Source of the DNA: a virus
Lineage: Duplodnaviria; Heunggongvirae; Uroviricota; Caudoviricetes
Reading direction: 5' to 3' (one strand)
Virus record (IMG/VR): IMGVR_UViG_2526164601_000033
DNA length: 18,343 nucleotides
The position numbers and the translations under genes are program-made. A model generated the notes under the pieces. The model did not search any database and was not told the DNA's origin. It saw only the letters and a list, made by a program, of their open reading frames with translations. Below are positions 1,422 through 15,794 of this stretch, in pieces. Within the stretch, counting starts at the first letter, position 1, and each line of letters begins with the position of its first letter.

Positions 1422-3893
1422 TTAAAAATCAGCCTGATTCGGGATCAGTTTTTGCCAGATAACTGAAACGTATTTTGCCTGGTAACGGGCGTCATCAAGT
1501 GCATTATGGCGCTCACCTTCGAATGGAATAGCCGTTCTGGCATCGAAGTCTATGGCTTTCCCCAGCTCAACGATTGTGCGTACATCGCGATCGTTGTAGT
1601 AACGCCACGGGCAGGGGATCCCCTGCCGTTCGTATGAACGGCGCAAAATCGTGTTGTCGAAGTTGGCTCCATTTCCCCAGACCTGAACAAAAAATTCACC
1701 GGAGTTTTCGTCGATAAATTCCCGCAATTGTAACAGTGCATCATCTAACGGGATTTCATCGGTCATAATGGCAGATTGCGCTTCGCGTGATTGCTTAAGC
1801 CACCATTTAATGGTGTCCCGATCAATGACCCCGCCAGCAGTTTCCAGATCGATAGTCTTACTAAATTCCGGCCCCATATCTCCGGTTTGCGGATCGAAAA
1901 ATATTGCACCTATTGAGATGATCGGGGCATCAGGATTTTTTCCCATGGTTTCAAGGTCGATCATTAGATGGTCACACGTCCTGCTGGTGGATGTGATTTC
2001 TTGATGACCGTTCACCTTAATTGAGTGATCTGCCGTCTCGCCAGTTTCATTATCGCTATCGTGATGCTGATTGCCGTCAGTGTTCTCCTTGTGTGGATGT
2101 TCAGCGCCTTCCATTTCCTCCGGATCATCTTCCTGAACTTCAACCTGATACTCTTCATCGAATGTTTCCTGGTATGTTGCGTCGCCCATCACCGCGCCAC
2201 AATCAGGGCAGTTGCCGCCGCCGGTCTGACCGCAGGCGGTGCAGACTTTTTCCGGTTCCTGTTGCGCTACTGGCTCAGGTTGTTTCGTTTCTGGCTCGTT
2301 TTGTTGCGTATTTGGGCTGTTTTGTTCCGCTTTCTGGTCGTTCTGTTCCGATTCTTGCTGGTTCTGGTTTACAGAATCGCGGGTTTCAATCCCCTTTACC
2401 CATTTCGGATCATTCGGGTCGCTAATCCCTGCAACAAATTCTCCGCGAGAGGCAGCAAGCAACTTATCGGCGTCAGGCTGGCTGATATTGGCTGCCTGCA
2501 TAATTTTGTTTACTTCGTCAGCGGTAACTTTTACCGGCTCTGGTTGTGCGGTCGTGTCAGATGCACCAGTATTTTGTTGTGAACCTGAGTACGTGCCGTT
2601 TTTACGTGCGAAGTATTCCTCTTTTGTGATTTCCGTAGCTCCCAAGGCTAGTGCTTTTTCCAGACCAGAAAGTTTGTTTGCGCGACCGTATTTTTCGCCA
2701 TCCTTGTCGGTGAAGAGGAAGTAGAACGGCCCCTCACGCTCTACAGATGGTTCGACTTCCACTTTGCATTCGGTTTTTTCGTTGCCCGGAATTGCCGTTT
2801 CCACTGCATCAGTTTCTGGTACTGGCGACGAGAGAGTATCAGTTGCGCTCTGATTTCTTCCTTCATCTTCAAACACGCCCTTTGTAGTCAGGTATTCAGT
2901 AATGTATTTGTTCAGTGCCACAGGGTCTTTGTGAATGTCGATCGGACGTTCACGGACAAGGCCAAAAATAGTCTGGCGGTCGTAGCGAAGGGCATCAGGC
3001 TGTTTGCGCATTGATGCCGAGATACGCTTCCAGTCTTCGCGGTCGTTGTCGATAACTTCATTTTTTGCCCAGCGATGGATGCTGCCGTCAATGTTTCCGG
3101 CATCCACATCACCAGGCCAGAGAGCGTAGGCCAGTTCTTCATCCAGCGTTTTCCATGTCTGCTTGTATTCGCGACAAATGGCGGCAGTGACTGGGTTGAT
3201 TTTTCCTGCTGAGTTTTCAGTGTTCTGTTGATTGACTCTGGCGCTGGCGAGATCAACAACAGACGTGTATTTTCCAGTCTCTTTGCGCTCTGCGTCCTGC
3301 CGTTTTTTCCAGTTACGTAATTCAGCCTGAATTTTGGGCCATTTGGCACCCGGATTACATTTGTGTTTAACCCATCCGATAGCGAACAGTTTGCGTTCCG
3401 GATACATAGCGTTAATTTCAGGCGTTTTCATCAGTGCTTCAACGATATGCCCGTCAAAGGTAGCAACGTCTTCCTGCAGTAATTCCTGCGCGTCAATCGC
3501 CATATCAACGGTGATGTTTTCACATGTACCGAACTTAACCAGGACCGCGTTCTGTACTTCAAGGGACAGCTTGTCAAAATTGACGTTCATCGGATCGGAT
3601 TCTGGTTCGACCGGAATAAAGGAAGCGGATTCCTCATCCCAGCGGTTTTCCTGCATATATTCAGCATCCCAGGAATCGAGGGCAGGGCGGGGTATACCGG
3701 GTTTATCCTCGCAGACAAGAAATTTATAAGCGCAGTCCTGAGCAGCCGGATAATGTTCCAGGAATTGCCAGTGAAATTTTGCGCGGGCGCGACGTTCATC
3801 ACCGGCTTCAATGGCAGTGGCTACAGCGACGGCACCTTCTTCCTTTATTGCCTGTTCGTCCGGAATGGCGGCGCAAATAAAGACTTTACTCAT
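1422..3893 (-). CDS. Large phage exonuclease-domain protein (C-terminal DnaQ-like DEDDh 3'-5' exonuclease, central zinc ribbon, low-complexity linker)
   Basis: 823-aa ORF. The C-terminal region carries DLET (Exo I-like), WGNGANFD (Exo II-like) and HNALDDA (Exo III-like) motifs. A CTACG...CPDCG zinc-ribbon-like motif and a Q/N/E/P-rich linker lie upstream of it. GAGG lies about 11 nt before the ATG. Confidence 0.75.
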   Translation of the reverse strand: MSKVFICAAIPDEQAIKEEGAVAVATAIEAGDERRARAKFHWQFLEHYPAAQDCAYKFLVCEDKPGIPRPALDSWDAEYMQENRWDEESASFIPVEPESDPMNVNFDKLSLEVQNAVLVKFGTCENITVDMAIDAQELLQEDVATFDGHIVEALMKTPEINAMYPERKLFAIGWVKHKCNPGAKWPKIQAELRNWKKRQDAERKETGKYTSVVDLASARVNQQNTENSAGKINPVTAAICREYKQTWKTLDEELAYALWPGDVDAGNIDGSIHRWAKNEVIDNDREDWKRISASMRKQPDALRYDRQTIFGLVRERPIDIHKDPVALNKYITEYLTTKGVFEDEGRNQSATDTLSSPVPETDAVETAIPGNEKTECKVEVEPSVEREGPFYFLFTDKDGEKYGRANKLSGLEKALALGATEITKEEYFARKNGTYSGSQQNTGASDTTAQPEPVKVTADEVNKIMQAANISQPDADKLLAASRGEFVAGISDPNDPKWVKGIETRDSVNQNQQESEQNDQKAEQNSPNTQQNEPETKQPEPVAQQEPEKVCTACGQTGGGNCPDCGAVMGDATYQETFDEEYQVEVQEDDPEEMEGAEHPHKENTDGNQHHDSDNETGETADHSIKVNGHQEITSTSRTCDHLMIDLETMGKNPDAPIISIGAIFFDPQTGDMGPEFSKTIDLETAGGVIDRDTIKWWLKQSREAQSAIMTDEIPLDDALLQLREFIDENSGEFFVQVWGNGANFDNTILRRSYERQGIPCPWRYYNDRDVRTIVELGKAIDFDARTAIPFEGERHNALDDARYQAKYVSVIWQKLIPNQADF

Positions 3894-3988: not shown

Positions 3989-4177
3989 TTATCCAGCCGG
4001 TATTTCGTTATTCAGGTTCAGCGATACTTTTTTTAACGGGAGGCATTCACCGGGGATTTTTTGTTCGTCCCTTACCTGAATGCAGGATGACTTACTGTCA
4101 TAAATTCCGGTAATCACATTTTGTGGCTCACCCGTTATAAGAAAAACGGTCATCACCAGTGCAAATGCTGAAGTCAC
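3989..4177 (-). CDS. ydfD: YdfD-like small membrane (lysis-type) protein
   Basis: 62-aa ORF with GTG start overlapping the dicB-like stop (GTGA) and GGAG about 9 nt upstream. N-terminal hydrophobic segment SAFALVMTVFLITGEP and C-terminal EQKIPGxC...NEIPAG resemble E. coli YdfD as recalled. It is immediately downstream of dicB, as in Qin. Confidence 0.6.
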   Translation of the reverse strand: MTSAFALVMTVFLITGEPQNVITGIYDSKSSCIQVRDEQKIPGECLPLKKVSLNLNNEIPAG

Positions 4178-4362
4178 TGCTGTTCTCCGATAATACCAAG
4201 TTCAAGAAGGGCAATTCTGGAAAGTATGGAATTATCATTGAGAAGATAAGGTTCATATTTTCTCATCTTAATGGCATCTTCCGTAAACTCCCGGTTACTG
4301 AGCAGAACACCAATATCAAAACAACCTTCAGACGTATTAACGTTTGGTAATAACGTTTCCAT
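4174..4362 (-). CDS. dicB: DicB-like cell-division inhibitor
   Basis: 62 aa from the ATG at 4362 (GAGGA about 9 nt upstream): METLLPNVNTSEGCFDIGV...FTEDAI matches the DicB N-terminus (MKTLLPNVNTSEGCFEIGV...) as recalled. The ORF track extends the frame to a GTG at 4467, probably not the true start. The gene is AT-rich. Confidence 0.7.
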   Translation of the reverse strand: METLLPNVNTSEGCFDIGVLLSNREFTEDAIKMRKYEPYLLNDNSILSRIALLELGIIGEQQ

Positions 4363-4531: not shown

Positions 4532-4589
4532 AAAAAGGGCGGCAGAGCAGTCACGGAGTAAAACTGATACCGCCAAACGTCACCAGAAA
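4532..4589 (-). ncRNA. dicF: DicF small regulatory RNA with its 3' terminator
   Basis: The reverse complement of 4532-4589 reads TTTCTGGTGACGTTTGGCGGTATCAGTTTTACTCCGTGACTGCTCTGCCGCCCTTTTT, which matches E. coli DicF as recalled, including the GGCGG/CCGCC terminator stem and U-run. It lies about 170 nt upstream of dicB on the same strand, as in Qin. Confidence 0.8.
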
Positions 4590-4922
4590 ATTGATAACAG
4601 AGGGCGTTGCAGCGGGGTTGTCACTTAAGCGTATGGTCAACCTGACAACCCGGTGTCCTCAACGGGGAAGGAATAACCCCTCCATACTTACCGCCGCGCC
4701 ATTTCGCGGATTGCCACAACCGGAAGCGCACGGTCGACGAAAATTTAACGACAGGCTATCTATGAACCAGCTACCTCGCCGTGCGCTTTCGCGTTATGGT
4801 CTGACTTTTCAGAGAAATATCCTTTCAGTAAACTGTCAGTGCCGGATGTTCACCCGTGTCCGGCGCACGCACTCCACTTCACCCGTGGAGAACTCCTTAA
4901 TTACCAACCCTCAGGAGGGTGA

Positions 4923-5156
4923 ATGTTAAAATCAACTCTTATTGCTAAATGCCTTTATCAAAATCGCATGGTAAGCAGCATTTCAATAGGCGAGTCTGCA
5001 GTTAAAAGTATTTTCGAAGAGTACTTTCCCGGGCATGATTTTAATAAATGGAATACCAAATTACCGCCAGCAGTTTCAACGCGTATTCTGAAAGCAACCG
5101 AAAGAGCAAGTACAATTCGCGTTAACTATTTCATTAAAGATTTGTGGGATCTTTGA
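4923..5156 (+). CDS. Hypothetical 77-aa protein on the strand opposite to the surrounding operon
   Basis: ATG preceded by a strong SD (AGGAGGGTGA-ATG). The ORF is AT-rich and its 3' end overlaps the 3' end of the convergent 135-aa gene by 23 bp. No recognisable family. Confidence 0.5.
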   Translation: MLKSTLIAKCLYQNRMVSSISIGESAVKSIFEEYFPGHDFNKWNTKLPPAVSTRILKATERASTIRVNYFIKDLWDL

Positions 5157-5541
5157 TATCCACAGAGCCTAAAGTATGTGCATATGGATGTGCTATTATG
5201 CGCCCTCGCAGATTTGCATCATTTTCTAAATTCACTGAACGAAACAGGGCATCAACAAGGCTCTGTACAATGCAAAGGCAATCGAAGACTGTCGCCGTTT
5301 CTGTTTTGATTGATGAAAGAACATGGCCATTCACGCAAACAGAAATTACCCGTTTATTAACATCGCTTTCCTGCTTTTGATTATCAGAACCATATAGCCC
5401 AGAAAAAGCATTGCGCACATTACGAACCATATTATCGATGGTTTCTTTTTCTGCGGTACTAAGGTCAAGAGTAGCCAGTTGTGAACGAACTATATTCGAT
5501 GCCATTTCCTGTAATGGCGTTGGTAAATCTTTAAATTCCAT
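5134..5541 (-). CDS. Hypothetical 135-aa protein with C-proximal R-x5-H-x-Y motif (possible HEPN-like fold)
   Basis: ORF with GAGG about 8 nt upstream of the ATG, AT-rich. Motif LRGRIIAHPY lies near the C-terminus. The gene is co-directional with and 22 bp downstream of the 72-aa gene. Confidence 0.55.
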   Translation of the reverse strand: MEFKDLPTPLQEMASNIVRSQLATLDLSTAEKETIDNMVRNVRNAFSGLYGSDNQKQESDVNKRVISVCVNGHVLSSIKTETATVFDCLCIVQSLVDALFRSVNLENDANLRGRIIAHPYAHTLGSVDIKDPTNL

Positions 5542-5563
5542 TATTAGCCTCGTTGGTTAGCTA

Positions 5564-5782
5564 TTAACGTGGGTATGTAATCATTCTGGCAATGCTTAAT
5601 GCCGCTGCTTTTTCCAGATTGGTGATATCCTGCTCCAGAGCGGACAGATTTTCAGCCTGCTTAGCCCTGGCTTCATTGGCCCATTTCAGGTCCTGCACCG
5701 CCTTAATTTTCTGGTGCATCCACTCATAAAGTTCATCATCGGTATAGTCTGGCGCGATGATGACGGGGTCTCGTTTCTGCAT
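5564..5782 (-). CDS. Hypothetical 72-aa protein (positional equivalent of ydfC in Qin)
   Basis: ATG with a strong SD (AAGGAG, 6 nt spacing). Same size and relative position as ydfC in the Qin dicB operon; sequence identity to YdfC not verified. Confidence 0.55.
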   Translation of the reverse strand: MQKRDPVIIAPDYTDDELYEWMHQKIKAVQDLKWANEARAKQAENLSALEQDITNLEKAAALSIARMITYPR

Positions 5783-5854: not shown

Positions 5855-6211
5855 TTACTCGAGAGGAAATTGGTTATGAATACAATCAAGTTTTCTTGCC
5901 CAGAATGTGGTGGCTAAGTCTTTGACACATCCTTTAAGCCGCAGGGCTCTGACAGTTTCGCGGGAGCCATCTGCAAAAATTGTGGTCACCTTGTAACTGA
6001 AGATGAGTCCTCGCAGTTCGATGACGAAATCGTTGACAATATCTTCGGTGCACTCACCAGAGACTTTCTGAAGTAAAGGCGCATACCGCTTAGTTACCGC
6101 TCTGATAACTCTTACCTGTCCGGCAATGGCGCTGATATCAATATAAAGCGCCATCGCTGTTTCTTTGCTGATCCCTGGACGCCTTCCATTCTGATGTTTG
6201 ACTTCGCCCAC
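5855..6211 (-). CDS. Hypothetical 118-aa protein, first gene downstream of the OL-like region
   Basis: ORF with GTG start preceded by AGAGGA 8-13 nt upstream; an internal ATG (residue 20) is an alternative start. No recognisable motif. Confidence 0.4.
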   Translation of the reverse strand: MGEVKHQNGRRPGISKETAMALYIDISAIAGQVRVIRAVTKRYAPLLQKVSGECTEDIVNDFVIELRGLIFSYKVTTIFADGSRETVRALRLKGCVKDLATTFWARKLDCIHNQFPLE

Positions 6212-6418: not shown

Positions 6419-6826
6419 TTATTTATTTGCGCTTCTTTTGCGAGCTTTGAGTAGTTCTTCAAAAAGTTTGTTGAAATTCTCAACTCGAGCACGCATCTCT
6501 GACAACAGAGCCTTTTGCTCTGACTCAGGCAGTGCGTCGAACAGTTGAAGCAACTCTTTTTGATCTTCTGTCAGATTGACTGGCTGATTATCTGGGATCG
6601 GTTCGCCTGGTTGCTTATCTTCATCTCCAAAAAGAAGCCAAGTCGGCGAGCACTGAAGCGCCTGGCTCAGTGCGAATAATCTCTTCCCCGCTGGCTGTGT
6701 TTCATCTCTTTCCCATTGAGAAATTGTTACGTGAGCCACTTTGACCAGCTTACCTAATGCGGCCTGAGACAGTTTTAATTTTTTTCGCCTGTATAAGAGG
6801 CGAGCACCGAAGGTTTCGTTTTTCAT
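6419..6826 (-). CDS. dicA: DicA-like HTH (XRE/CI-type) prophage repressor
   Basis: 135-aa ORF. The HTH segment SQAALGKLVKVAHVTISQWE and the blocks QCSPTWLLFGDEDKQP, LFDALPESEQ and EMRARVENFNKLFEELLKAR match E. coli DicA as recalled. It is divergent from a Cro-like gene across an operator-bearing intergenic region. Confidence 0.85.
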   Translation of the reverse strand: MKNETFGARLLYRRKKLKLSQAALGKLVKVAHVTISQWERDETQPAGKRLFALSQALQCSPTWLLFGDEDKQPGEPIPDNQPVNLTEDQKELLQLFDALPESEQKALLSEMRARVENFNKLFEELLKARKRSANK

Positions 6827-6902: not shown

Positions 6903-7130
6903 ATGTTGAAAATTGATGCTATAGCGTTTTTTGGCAGCAAAACAAAGCTTGCCAATGTCGCAGGAGTTAGGCTGGCAAGCGTTGCTGCATGGGGGGAACT
7001 GGTTCCTGAAGGTCGCGCGATGCGCCTGCAAGAGGCATCCGGCGGGGAACTTCAGTACGACCCCAAAGTTTATGACGAATATCGTAAGGCAAAGCGGGCG
7101 GGGCGGTTGAACAATGAAAATCACCACTGA
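6903..7130 (+). CDS. dicC: Cro-like HTH regulator (DicC/YdaS family)
   Basis: 75-aa ORF with AAGGGG about 8 nt upstream. Divergent partner of the DicA-like gene; block GRAMRLQEASGGELQYDPKVYDEYRK resembles DicC as recalled (less certain than the DicA recall). Confidence 0.75.
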   Translation: MLKIDAIAFFGSKTKLANVAGVRLASVAAWGELVPEGRAMRLQEASGGELQYDPKVYDEYRKAKRAGRLNNENHH

Positions 7131-11549: not shown

Positions 11550-11852
11550 CCGGATGCCGCGCCAGCGGCATGTAGGGGCAGCTCACAAAACGGAAAAAAT
11601 TGTACGCTAAGCCTCGCCAGGTGAACTGAATTCATTCCGATATGGGAATTCCCATATCGGGCGAAAACGGTTTGCTGTAACGGCAGAGTTAAGTAGGATT
11701 GCTGCGGGTGCTTGAGGCTATCTGCCTCGGGCATGAACACCAACGGCAGATAGATAAAAGCCCCACCCGACTATAAATCGAAGTGAGGCCCCTATATGCT
11801 CGTCACATATAGATTGCCTCTTACGGACCGAAAGGTCAAGGAGAAGCAGGCT

Positions 11853-12008
11853 ATGAAGCAGCAAAAGGCGATGTTAATCGCCCTGATCGTCATCTGTTTA
11901 ACCGTCATAGTGACGGCACTGGTAACGAGGAAAGACCTCTGCGAGGTACGAATCCGAACCGGCCAGACGGAGGTCGCTGTCTTCACAGCTTACGAACCTG
12001 AGGAGTAA
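11853..12008 (+). CDS. hokD: Hok/Gef-family membrane toxin (type I toxin-antitoxin toxin)
   Basis: 51-aa product MKQQKAMLIALIVICLTVIVTALVTRKDLCEVRIRTGQTEVAVFTAYEPEE matches HokD/RelF as recalled. AAGGAG SD. A long structured leader lies upstream, with palindromes at 11637-11660 and 11792-11812. Confidence 0.85.
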   Translation: MKQQKAMLIALIVICLTVIVTALVTRKDLCEVRIRTGQTEVAVFTAYEPEE

Positions 12009-14257: not shown

Positions 14258-14475
14258 ATAACCACTATTTACAGTTTGTGCGTGAGCAGCTCATTATCGC
14301 CACCGCTGATTTGAGTGGGGCAACAAAAGGTCAGCTTGAAGCCTGGCAGGAGAATGCCATGTTCGATACAGGGCGTTACAGGCGAAAAAAAATCCGGTAC
14401 CGCGATGAAGTGACTGGAAAAATGATAACGCGGGATAATCCACCAATCGTTATTATCCTGCGCCCGGCCCTTTAG
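14254..14475 (+). CDS. Hypothetical 73-aa protein; 3' end runs 10 nt into the first tRNA
   Basis: ATG at 14254 overlaps the rusA stop (ATGA), with GGAG 5 nt upstream. The stop codon TAG at 14473-14475 lies inside the tRNA. It occupies the position where a late antiterminator Q gene would be expected but is too short for one. Confidence 0.35.
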   Translation: MNNHYLQFVREQLIIATADLSGATKGQLEAWQENAMFDTGRYRRKKIRYRDEVTGKMITRDNPPIVIILRPAL

Positions 14476-14541
14476 CTCAGTGGTGAGAGCGAGCGACTCA
14501 TAATCGCCAGGTCGCTGGTTCAAATCCAGCAAGGGCCACCA
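14466..14541 (+). tRNA. tRNA-Ile2-like (anticodon CAU; Met cannot be excluded from sequence alone)
   Basis: Manual cloverleaf: acceptor GGCCCTT/AAGGGCC, D-arm GCTC-AGTGGTGA-GAGC, anticodon loop CTCATAA, T-arm GCTGG-TTCAAAT-CCAGC, encoded CCA. Resembles E. coli ileX-type tRNA as recalled. Confidence 0.8.
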
Positions 14542-14542
14542 A

Positions 14543-14618
14543 CCGCCACTAGCCATCAGGAAAGAGCGTCAACCCTTTAAGTTGAGTGTGCGAGGTTCGA
14601 GTCCCCGGTGGTGGTCCA
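14543..14618 (+). tRNA. tRNA-like sequence, degenerate (possible pseudo-tRNA); predicted anticodon loop CCTTTAA
   Basis: Acceptor CCGCCAC/GTGGTGG (one G-U pair) plus encoded CCA and a canonical GGTTCGAGTCC T-loop. The D-stem has only two Watson-Crick pairs (GCCA versus GAGC), the T-stem has an A-C mismatch, and position 33 is C rather than U. Confidence 0.4.
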
Positions 14619-14631
14619 TTATCGGTATTCT

Positions 14632-14705
14632 GCGTTGTTAGCTCAGCAGGACAGAGCAATTGCCTTCTAAGCAATCGGTCACTGGTTCGACTCCAGTACA
14701 ACGCG
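14632..14705 (+). tRNA. tRNA-Arg (anticodon UCU, reads rare AGA)
   Basis: Manual cloverleaf: acceptor GCGTTGT/ACAACGC, D-arm GCTC-AGCAGGAC-AGAGC, anticodon stem ATTGC/GCAAT with loop CTTCTAA, T-arm ACTGG-TTCGACT-CCAGT. CCA is not encoded. Confidence 0.8.
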
Positions 14706-14721
14706 CTACACTTATTTTCCC

Positions 14722-15477: not shown

Positions 15478-15643
15478 TTTTTTGTTTGCTGTTTATTAAA
15501 AACACTTCTGCATGGTGAATCCCCCTGTGCGGAGGGGCGATCAGCAACCAGGTATATGGGATAATCGCGGATTCAGGTGCTGATACTGAATTCACCGGGA
15601 GGCACCCGGCACCATGCAAGAAAAAGAATGTGCATGCAAACAT

Positions 15644-15667
15644 GCCCCTCTCCGGAGGGGCTTTTTT
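15644..15667 (+). terminator. Rho-independent terminator in the intergenic region upstream of the esterase gene
   Basis: Stem GCCCCTC / GAGGGGC with TCCG loop, followed by TTTTTT. Confidence 0.55.
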
Positions 15668-15794
15668 ATGGGTAAAAAATGCCCGAATGGGTTCGGGCAA
15701 CAGCATGAGATACTGATATTGTTGTGTTGTTATCGTGTGGATTTTAACCAGGGTTTATCAGGCTGCGCAACTGCGTGGCCTTTTTTCATTTCTT

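Follow-up and report, generated by a model that had tools for sequence, protein, structure and literature searches.

A conserved antisense gene pair at a cassette-exchange hotspot of the dicB operon in lambdoid prophages

Small genes lying on opposite strands next to a phage lysis-lysogeny switch have been described before. In Staphylococcus aureus phage 80alpha, the overlapping antisense pair Tha/Ith is located beside cI, and transcriptional interference together with a protein inhibitor couples immunity to the phage life cycle (Rostol et al. 2024, PMC11087260). Here, we analyzed an 18,343-nt stretch of the Caudoviricetes virus record IMGVR_UViG_2526164601_000033 (hereafter, the window), which contains a Qin-type dicB operon on its minus strand. 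Two open reading frames (ORFs), ORF135 (5134..5541, minus strand) and ORF77 (4923..5156, plus strand), face each other between ydfC and the gene of the DicF small RNA (sRNA) of this operon. We found that they form a conserved, uncharacterized antisense pair and that the site they occupy is a hotspot of the dicBF operon; this is what is new here, the organizational theme itself being already known.

The window pair resembles Tha/Ith in that both are small pairs beside the switch with one gene antisense, overlapping a switch-controlled operon. The arrangement in the window is, however, a mirror image: in 80alpha, the antisense gene codes for the inhibitor and faces the cI operon of the lysogenic state, whereas here the operon is the repressed early one and the antisense gene would encode the lysogen-phase product. 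There is no sequence or fold similarity between the two systems, and Tha is a HEPN ribonuclease (RNase), which nothing in the window pair is.

Lambdoid morons and immunity cargo (lambda rexAB, P22 sieA/sieB, and Qin DicB) share with the locus an atypical composition, presence/absence polymorphism among phages that are nearly the same elsewhere, and a repressor as neighbor. However, possession of a promoter and a terminator of its own is what defines a moron, while in the window we detected neither a promoter-like site scoring at least 9/12 before ORF77 nor a hairpin at the overlap. Also unlike a moron, the cassette described here replaces part of a resident gene, creating a fusion to its N-terminal domain. 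The 3′ overlap of oop RNA and cII mRNA in phage lambda, reportedly described by Krinke & Wulff, is similar in that a lambdoid early gene is met at its 3′ end by a convergent, overlapping transcript; oop is noncoding, whereas here both strands encode conserved proteins. In the polymorphic toxin-immunity cassettes CdiA-CT/CdiI and Rhs-CT/RhsI, as with the E. coli N-terminal domain, a constant part carries one of several exchangeable C-terminal modules, and every module has its own small neighbor gene. The differences are that the N-terminal domain is only 57 amino acids (aa) long with no secretion or delivery domain, that the neighbor genes are convergent instead of codirectional and downstream, and that no toxin domain is recognizable.

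The inserted block and the two-module structure of ORF135

Pairwise alignment with K-12 Qin (L002) delimited the insertion cleanly, as a single gap of 634 bp (4910..5543, no strand assigned) that is missing from K-12 Qin and has flanks ~97% identical to it. The GC content of the block is 39.1%, compared to 49.1 and 48.1% in equal-sized flanks, and falls within the lowest 2.7% of 634-bp windows of the whole sequence. Alignment, GC content, and gene order thus bear out the initial annotation, which was made from the sequence alone and had placed extra AT-rich cargo inside a dicB-type operon. It had also put ~970 bp between ydfC and DicF. The distance from the ydfC stop (5564) to the DicF 5′ end is 976 nt, but only 634 bp of it is added DNA: the premise that dicF directly follows ydfC in Qin was mistaken, as 340 bp already lie between them in K-12 Qin.

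The ORF coordinates agree with two convergent genes, one on the operon strand and one opposite, whose 3′ ends overlap by 23 bp (5134..5156). Both strands of the overlap are coding, with one protein ending in IKDPTNL and the other in IKDLWDL. ORF135 is codirectional with ydfC, DicF, and dicB. ORF77 runs antisense to the operon and has a strong Shine-Dalgarno (SD) sequence, AGGAGG (4913..4918, plus strand), 4 nt before its ATG.

Both ORFs are real genes. For ORF77, this follows from a compact, all-alpha predicted structure, a five-helix globule with a predicted local distance difference test score (pLDDT) of 96.7, and from homologs in other genera that are 55 to 72% identical and retain invariant residues; for ORF135, from a full-length match to phrog_1363 (5e-47) and from the recurrence of both its halves elsewhere. 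They are also genes of unknown function, as the initial annotation had said: RefSeq lists both as “hypothetical protein,” and neither has a significant match in Pfam, NCBIfam, or PADLOC. NCBIfam and PADLOC returned nothing relevant for either protein, and the rows obtained for ORF135 in Pfam and NCBIfam were far below threshold. In PHROGs, ORF135 belongs to phrog_1363 and ORF77 to phrog_10348, both families of unknown function. No solved or annotated structural neighbor of ORF77 was found despite its confident predicted fold. Twelve deposited phage records (PPompW prophages, Stx2a phage tandems, and phage Evi) contain ORF77, labeled as hypothetical in all of them. Literature searches by accession or PHROG identifier, and on ydfC/dicF and lambdoid hotspots, returned no paper on ORF77 or ORF135.

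Judging by its homologies, ORF135 is a fusion of two modules. Residues 1 to 63 also match phrog_6937, phrog_2151, and phrog_9419, and residues 55 to 128 match phrog_23433. The N-terminal module (N-domain; residues 1 to 57, MEFKDLP...NVRNAFSGLY; 5371..5541, minus strand) is a two-helix module of Escherichia and Salmonella proteins. Many proteins of these genera match only residues 1 to ~55 of ORF135 and continue into at least five other unrelated C termini, with total lengths of 122, 124, 129, 133/137, and 208/212 aa. The N-domain of the window is itself recombinant: its residues 8 to 31 (5449-5520) match the version that accompanies the 208-, 124-, and 133-aa variants, while most 135- and 201-aa relatives have a different version of this segment, the two versions rejoining at KETIDN.

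The C-terminal module (C-domain; residues 58 to 135; 5134..5370, minus strand) is homologous to stand-alone phage proteins of 75 to 86 aa. Such proteins from Serratia, Klebsiella, Citrobacter, Yersinia, Erwinia, Proteus, and Photorhabdus align with residues ~60 to 135 of ORF135 and share the core VNG..T..AVAADY...LE.EAN.SG[KR]T[IL]....GS. The most conserved stretch is the tail (L105, E106, A109, N110, G113, R/K114, T115, G125, and S126), which is predicted to be coil in the AlphaFold2 (AF2) model of ORF135, a model with a mean pLDDT of 42.8. Five non–E. coli C-domain proteins (P0221, P0212, P0214, P0224, and P0182) carry a different N-terminal extension of ~30 aa, MQFD..(I/V)CK.F.(V/L)P.EA...I. 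Its first residues faintly resemble the start of the E. coli N-domain, MEFKDLP, and an older relationship between the two may exist.

The initial annotation had pointed out the string LRGRIIAHPY near the C terminus of ORF135, which is indeed present at residues 111 to 120, and had noted that this R-x5-H-x-Y motif fits the R-x4-6-H signature of HEPN RNases and is similar to the RX4HXY of HepT-type toxins. We aligned 47 homologs of non–E. coli type and 8 representatives of E. coli-type clusters. Residue 112 is Arg in 1/47 of the former (Ser in 34/47), and among the E. coli-type representatives it is split between Arg (4/8) and Gln (4/8). His is found at position 118 in 25/47 non–E. coli-type homologs, with a gap in 13 and Gly in 9, and Tyr at position 120 in none (0/47). 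The conserved basic residue of the region is R/K114, just 3 residues before H118. Non-conservation of the R and H in homologs is the outcome that the initial annotation had itself named as speaking against its reading.

Profile searches gave no support to it either. There was no match to a Pfam family of the HEPN clan even at E ≤ 1, the sole row being ROS_MUCR at 0.088, and profile searches against all Protein Data Bank sequences were empty at E ≤ 10. The AF2 model, left out of fold searches owing to its low pLDDT, shows two helices, a beta-hairpin (65 to 70 and 73 to 79), and a helix (85 to 106), with the motif in coil. The HepT/MNT (HEPN) type VII toxin-antitoxin systems pair HepT with an MNT nucleotidyltransferase, whereas ORF77, all-alpha and only 77 aa long, matches no Pfam family and is not a nucleotidyltransferase. 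The likeness is therefore limited to a short string of the window protein that fits R-x4-6-H. On motif conservation, profile searches, and the low-confidence predicted secondary structure, we rejected the HEPN/HepT assignment; that ORF135 works as an RNase through R-x5-H-x-Y is extremely improbable. The initial description of the locus is thus accurate, and the HEPN rationale is wrong.

Conservation of the pair and exchange of cassettes

The tail-to-tail pair is kept in temperate phages of at least seven enterobacterial genera. Besides Escherichia, convergent and overlapping C-domain and ORF77 genes are present in Serratia, Klebsiella, Proteus, Photorhabdus, Erwinia, and one more lineage of Enterobacteriaceae, and a convergent C-domain gene lies beside every Enterobacterales ORF77 homolog examined. 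The overlap is 23 bp, identical in size to that of the window, in Serratia, Klebsiella, Proteus, and Erwinia. In the further Enterobacteriaceae lineage, where ORF77 is 28 to 36% identical to the others, it is 33 bp. The pair is thus kept even where ORF77 identity drops to 28–36% and C-domain identity drops to 32–46%.

The scan of species-representative genomes yielded 4 loci, which limits its statistics. In IMG/VR, all 79 ORF77 loci with enough downstream sequence have a convergent C-domain (79/79). It is fused to an N-domain in 54 of them and stands without one in 25, and the overlap measures 23 bp in 72/79. Among the phage and prophage loci examined, ORF77 lacks an adjacent C-domain only at the truncated contig end of L084. 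Judged from these gene neighborhoods, the pair is conserved well beyond what linkage would predict in mosaic phages, and the two genes behave as a unit.

The dependence is asymmetric, the association being weaker when viewed from the C-domain side. ORF77 is present at 14/17 IMG/VR C-domain loci of non–E. coli type. At one of the three others, L116, close to a contig end, ORF77 is missing and a codirectional gene is found instead, while the C-domain retains the overlap-derived tail ...KDPLGL; this is an apparent recent loss of ORF77. At the two remaining loci, the C-domain is followed by an extension, which is either part of the protein or encoded separately, and the reverse gene is another one, of 150 aa. 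The E. coli 201-aa variant consists of the C-domain plus a 66-aa extension and is accompanied by another reverse gene of 63 aa (phrog_2605), again with a 23-bp overlap. A Serratia 208-aa variant has the C-domain without ORF77. In Photorhabdus temperata (L022 4001-4227, plus strand), ORF77 is frameshifted and the C-domain is intact.

The ydfC–dicF site of dicB-type lambdoid prophages is a cassette-exchange hotspot, and the block in the window is one of its alleles. We assessed its occupancy in 5426 complete E. coli genomes. The empty, K-12-like junction was found in 2697 genomes and the window-type ORF135/ORF77 cassette, at ≥80% coverage, in 644, with carriers that include O157:H7, O26, O103, and O145 strains. 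The 208-aa/ORF69 cassette occurs in 594 genomes, the 133-aa cassette in 125, the 124-aa/ORF73 cassette in 87, and the 201-aa/ORF63 cassette in 8. All five variants follow one design, a forward gene starting with the N-domain combined with a different reverse gene (phrog_10348, 2605, 18692, 4274, and 7249). The SD junction, TTCACCCTCCTGAGGGTTGG on the operon strand, is common to ORF77 and the reverse genes of three other aligned E. coli cassettes; the junction of the 208-aa/ORF69 cassette (L016) is another one and contains its own GGAGG. Reverse genes can also decay: in L007 (3362-3680, minus strand), a frameshift or stop interrupts the phrog_18692 gene that belongs to the 133-aa cassette.

Position beside the switch, possible function, and alternatives

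In the window, the order typical of Qin-type dicB operons, DicA-like repressor, ydfC, DicF, and DicB, is present on one strand, and by gene order (the promoters are predictions) ORF77 sits antisense inside an operon under the lysis-lysogeny repressor. The position is similar in other genera. In a Serratia prophage, cI is followed by a terminator-like hairpin (4650-4632), a promoter-like site (4584-4557), and then the C-domain gene; in a Klebsiella prophage, the C-domain gene comes directly after cI, with a promoter-like site scoring 10/12 upstream. From the cI terminator and the predicted pL-like promoter upstream, the C-domain gene would therefore be the first early-left gene in both, with ORF77 antisense between it and the remaining early genes. 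In Proteus, a ydfC homolog precedes the C-domain, as in E. coli.

A noncoding element, GTGGTATCTT...ACACAACCAAGAAGG, is kept upstream of ORF77 across four genera and looks like an extended −10. The sequence GTGGTATCTTGGAGTTCTCACACAACCAAGAAGG, found upstream of ORF77 in four genera, is similar to an extended −10 promoter with a leader behind it, and a GC-rich palindrome precedes it (L011 3940-4000, L013, L020, and L022). A related element is located before unrelated reverse genes (L028 ~3300-3440, L030 ~3365-3420, and L123). The palindrome and GTGGTATCTTGGAGTTCTCACACAACCAAGAAGG may represent a promoter with its leader that these loci have in common or, read on the opposite strand, a signal carried by the early-left transcript.

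The pair may serve in toxin/immunity or against other phages. If it does, ORF77 is more likely the effector and the C-domain of ORF135 the neutralizer, the reverse of the polarity implied by the initial annotation. We propose, with a probability of roughly 0.38, that the two genes constitute a coupled module with mutually exclusive expression and antagonist protein products. The cross-genus pairing, the place beside the switch, the conserved noncoding element, and the Tha/Ith precedent speak in its favor. Its core is an old pair, a ~78-aa C-domain protein of the early operon, in E. coli fused to the 57-aa N-domain, plus the antisense ORF77. Since the repressor-controlled pL/dicB operon contains the forward gene and is opposed in direction by ORF77, the pair could work as a “noncontiguous operon.” In a lysogen, DicA or CI would silence the forward gene, and ORF77 could be made from its own promoter. 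Upon derepression, early transcription would run head-on through ORF77, lowering its expression and at the same time supplying the C-domain. ORF77 would thus be a lysogen-phase effector, be it in exclusion, defense, or a toxin-like role, and the C-domain an early-lytic neutralizer, whose conserved tail, predicted to lack structure, would probably be the acting part.

Three observations suggest this polarity. In the complete phage and prophage loci examined, ORF77 was not found without the C-domain, while the C-domain survives without ORF77; since orphan survival is seen for the C-domain only, it is better suited to be the neutralizer than the effector. In Photorhabdus, an intact C-domain stands beside a broken ORF77. 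Last, the best-conserved stretch of the C-domain is its tail, for which no structure is predicted, a trait of many antidotes; ORF77, in contrast, forms a rigid globule. The broadest form of the proposal, a new prophage module family widespread in Enterobacterales, in which the ORF77 effector is turned off on induction by head-on transcription plus a C-domain antidote, together with a polymorphic effector/antidote hotspot between ydfC and dicF built on a 57-aa N-terminal adaptor and cognate antisense genes, we consider doubtful.

Several results weigh against the coupled-module proposal. No sigma-70-like site scoring at least 9/12 was found upstream of ORF77 in the window (4589..4909, plus strand), and the E. 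coli spacer resembles the GTGGTATCTTGGAGTTCTCACACAACCAAGAAGG element, but the TATCTT hexamer appears to be missing from it; it may be, therefore, that ORF77 is not expressed in the E. coli window. The promoter scan of the window as a whole gave 7 sites compared to 4.3 ± 1.9 expected from shuffles, which is not above expectation. There is no terminator-like hairpin at the 23-bp overlap in the window (z = −0.39 and −0.04), and on these values, a bidirectional terminator was rejected; in Serratia, the plus strand folds significantly at the overlap (z = −3.1), into a hairpin without a T-run. The “disordered tail” of the C-domain may only reflect a shallow alignment, given the low pLDDT of ORF135. 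Charge and isoelectric point show no consistent toxin/antitoxin pattern between the members of the pair, and the other cassette alleles have no significant PADLOC or Pfam match; no cassette protein fits a known defense family. Extended C-domains pair with other reverse genes, and ORF77 may be interchangeable cargo rather than a dedicated partner. The mirror-tree correlation of divergence is weak (r = 0.30), although 15 pairs are too few to tell. Last, a Psychrosphaera metagenome-assembled genome contains the only solitary ORF77-like gene, 43% identical (L023 3989-4228); its neighbors resemble a chemotaxis receptor gene on one side and a large glycoside hydrolase gene on the other, and neither a C-domain nor any phage gene is close by.

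Some of these points would be expected if the two genes were independent accessory genes linked by adjacency only, the ORF135 kin acting in immediate-early host takeover or anti-defense and ORF77 being a lysogenic-conversion moron. At least five types of cassette, none with an assigned function, are swapped at this site, the C-domain has at least three alternative reverse-gene neighbors (ORF63, ORF150, and a Serratia ORF), and the mirror-tree correlation is weak. The first place after pL is, moreover, typical of anti-defense genes; lambda ral and T7 ocr are encoded first after the early promoter. This explanation nevertheless appears unlikely to us in view of the 79/79 co-occurrence in IMG/VR, repeated in every enterobacterial genus checked, and of a dual-coding 23-bp overlap that is kept down to ~30% protein identity, which is unexpected for unlinked cargo in mosaic genomes. 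A model in which the proteins are secondary and convergent transcription itself acts in cis, as an RNA-level throttle limiting read-through into the toxic DicF, dicB, and ydfD, would resemble lambda oop RNA acting on cII mRNA. The cassette separates the DicF leader from the genes closest to the promoter, with no predicted terminator at the overlap, so that the transcripts should overlap extensively; every E. coli cassette type retains a reverse gene there, four of the five aligned with the same junction, and antisense interference contributes to control of Tha/Ith. Yet, purifying selection clearly acts on the two proteins in different genera, and ORF77 has a confidently predicted fold with invariant residues, which a role at the RNA level alone would not preserve; about half of complete E. 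coli genomes have the empty junction, and the module is therefore dispensable for DicF and dicB control. We regard such a throttle as quite improbable.

The classical toxin-antitoxin arrangement, with ORF135 or its C-domain as the toxin and ORF77 as immunity protein or antitoxin, would account for two small, adjacent, and co-occurring genes and for the strong SD of ORF77. Type II toxin-antitoxin genes are cotranscribed, while these genes are convergent with a 3′ overlap, and their co-occurrence is complete in one direction only (ORF77 with the C-domain at 79/79 loci, the C-domain with ORF77 at 14/17, and further C-domain variants without ORF77). A C-domain that persists without ORF77 in several lineages and beside the frameshifted Photorhabdus gene, and an ORF77 that was not seen without the C-domain in any complete phage or prophage locus examined, are the opposite of what is expected of a toxin and its antitoxin, and there is no similarity to known toxins. 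The reverse polarity is thus very unlikely. The remaining probability belongs to something we have not thought of.

The surrounding prophage and what the pair would mean

The repressor of the window operon is a DicA-like helix-turn-helix protein of 135 aa (6419..6826, minus strand; HTH_3 match at 4e-14 in Pfam), and K-12 dicA, at the equivalent position, is also 135 aa long. A Cro/DicC-like gene (6903-7130) is divergent from it. Between repressor and operon, the promoter scan found a promoter-like site, TTGACC-18-TAAATT (6320-6291, minus strand). A 99-aa ORF (phrog_21318; 5855-6154, minus strand) occupies the place of K-12 ydfA and ydfB between the repressor and ydfC; in L116, the gene directly downstream of the C-domain is 46% identical to it. 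The ydfC gene (5564..5782, minus strand; annotated YdfC, phrog_1744) lies directly upstream of ORF135. On the other side of the cassette, the conserved ydfC–dicF spacer, the DicF precursor leader (4589..4909, minus strand), is ~97% identical to K-12, and its complement is the region upstream of ORF77. It is followed by DicF (4537..4588, minus strand; Rfam RF00039, 76.7 bits, E = 1e-15), dicB (4174..4362, minus strand; Pfam PF05358, E = 1.8e-37, residues 36 to 97 of a 97-aa ORF), and, in the downstream part of the operon, a DUF1482/ydfD gene and a gene for an 823-aa exonuclease. The dicB gene of Qin is reported to confer phage exclusion (PMC6832061), and having it as a neighbor is a further point in favor of the proposed coupled module.

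One of the E. coli prophages that have the 201-aa variant carries a PaaA2/ParE toxin-antitoxin pair as an insertion after the repressor and before ydfA (L004 1694-2172), and the repressor–ydfA interval in L004 is a second cargo site of the dicB operon. Elsewhere in the window, a match to Sok antisense RNA (11706-11855, plus strand; Rfam RF01794, 103.9 bits) indicates a hok/sok-type type I toxin-antitoxin module in the same prophage. At 15481-15735 and 14466-14706, the Rfam matches place the STnc100 sRNA (plus strand) directly beside the anti-GcvB sRNA AgvB (minus strand), and a tRNA cluster, Met(cat), Lys(ttt), and Arg(tct), two of the three given by Rfam, is located ~1 kb upstream of them. 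We take STnc100/AgvB and the tRNA cluster to be hallmarks of the late-regulatory region of lambdoid prophages of enterohemorrhagic E. coli (EHEC).

If the coupled-module proposal is wrong, the HEPN lead is still closed, and knowledge of the fusion and of the conserved pairing allows better annotation of the genes. The hotspot lies inside the well-studied dicBF operon and has at least five alleles annotated as “hypothetical,” which would make it a compact source for new exclusion or anti-defense functions, and its cassettes could alter the DicF and DicB output of an EHEC prophage. If the proposal is true, ~12% of complete E. coli genomes, including those of O157:H7, O26, O103, and O145 Shiga toxin–producing strains, would carry an uncharacterized, life-cycle-switched module built from two protein families without known relatives.

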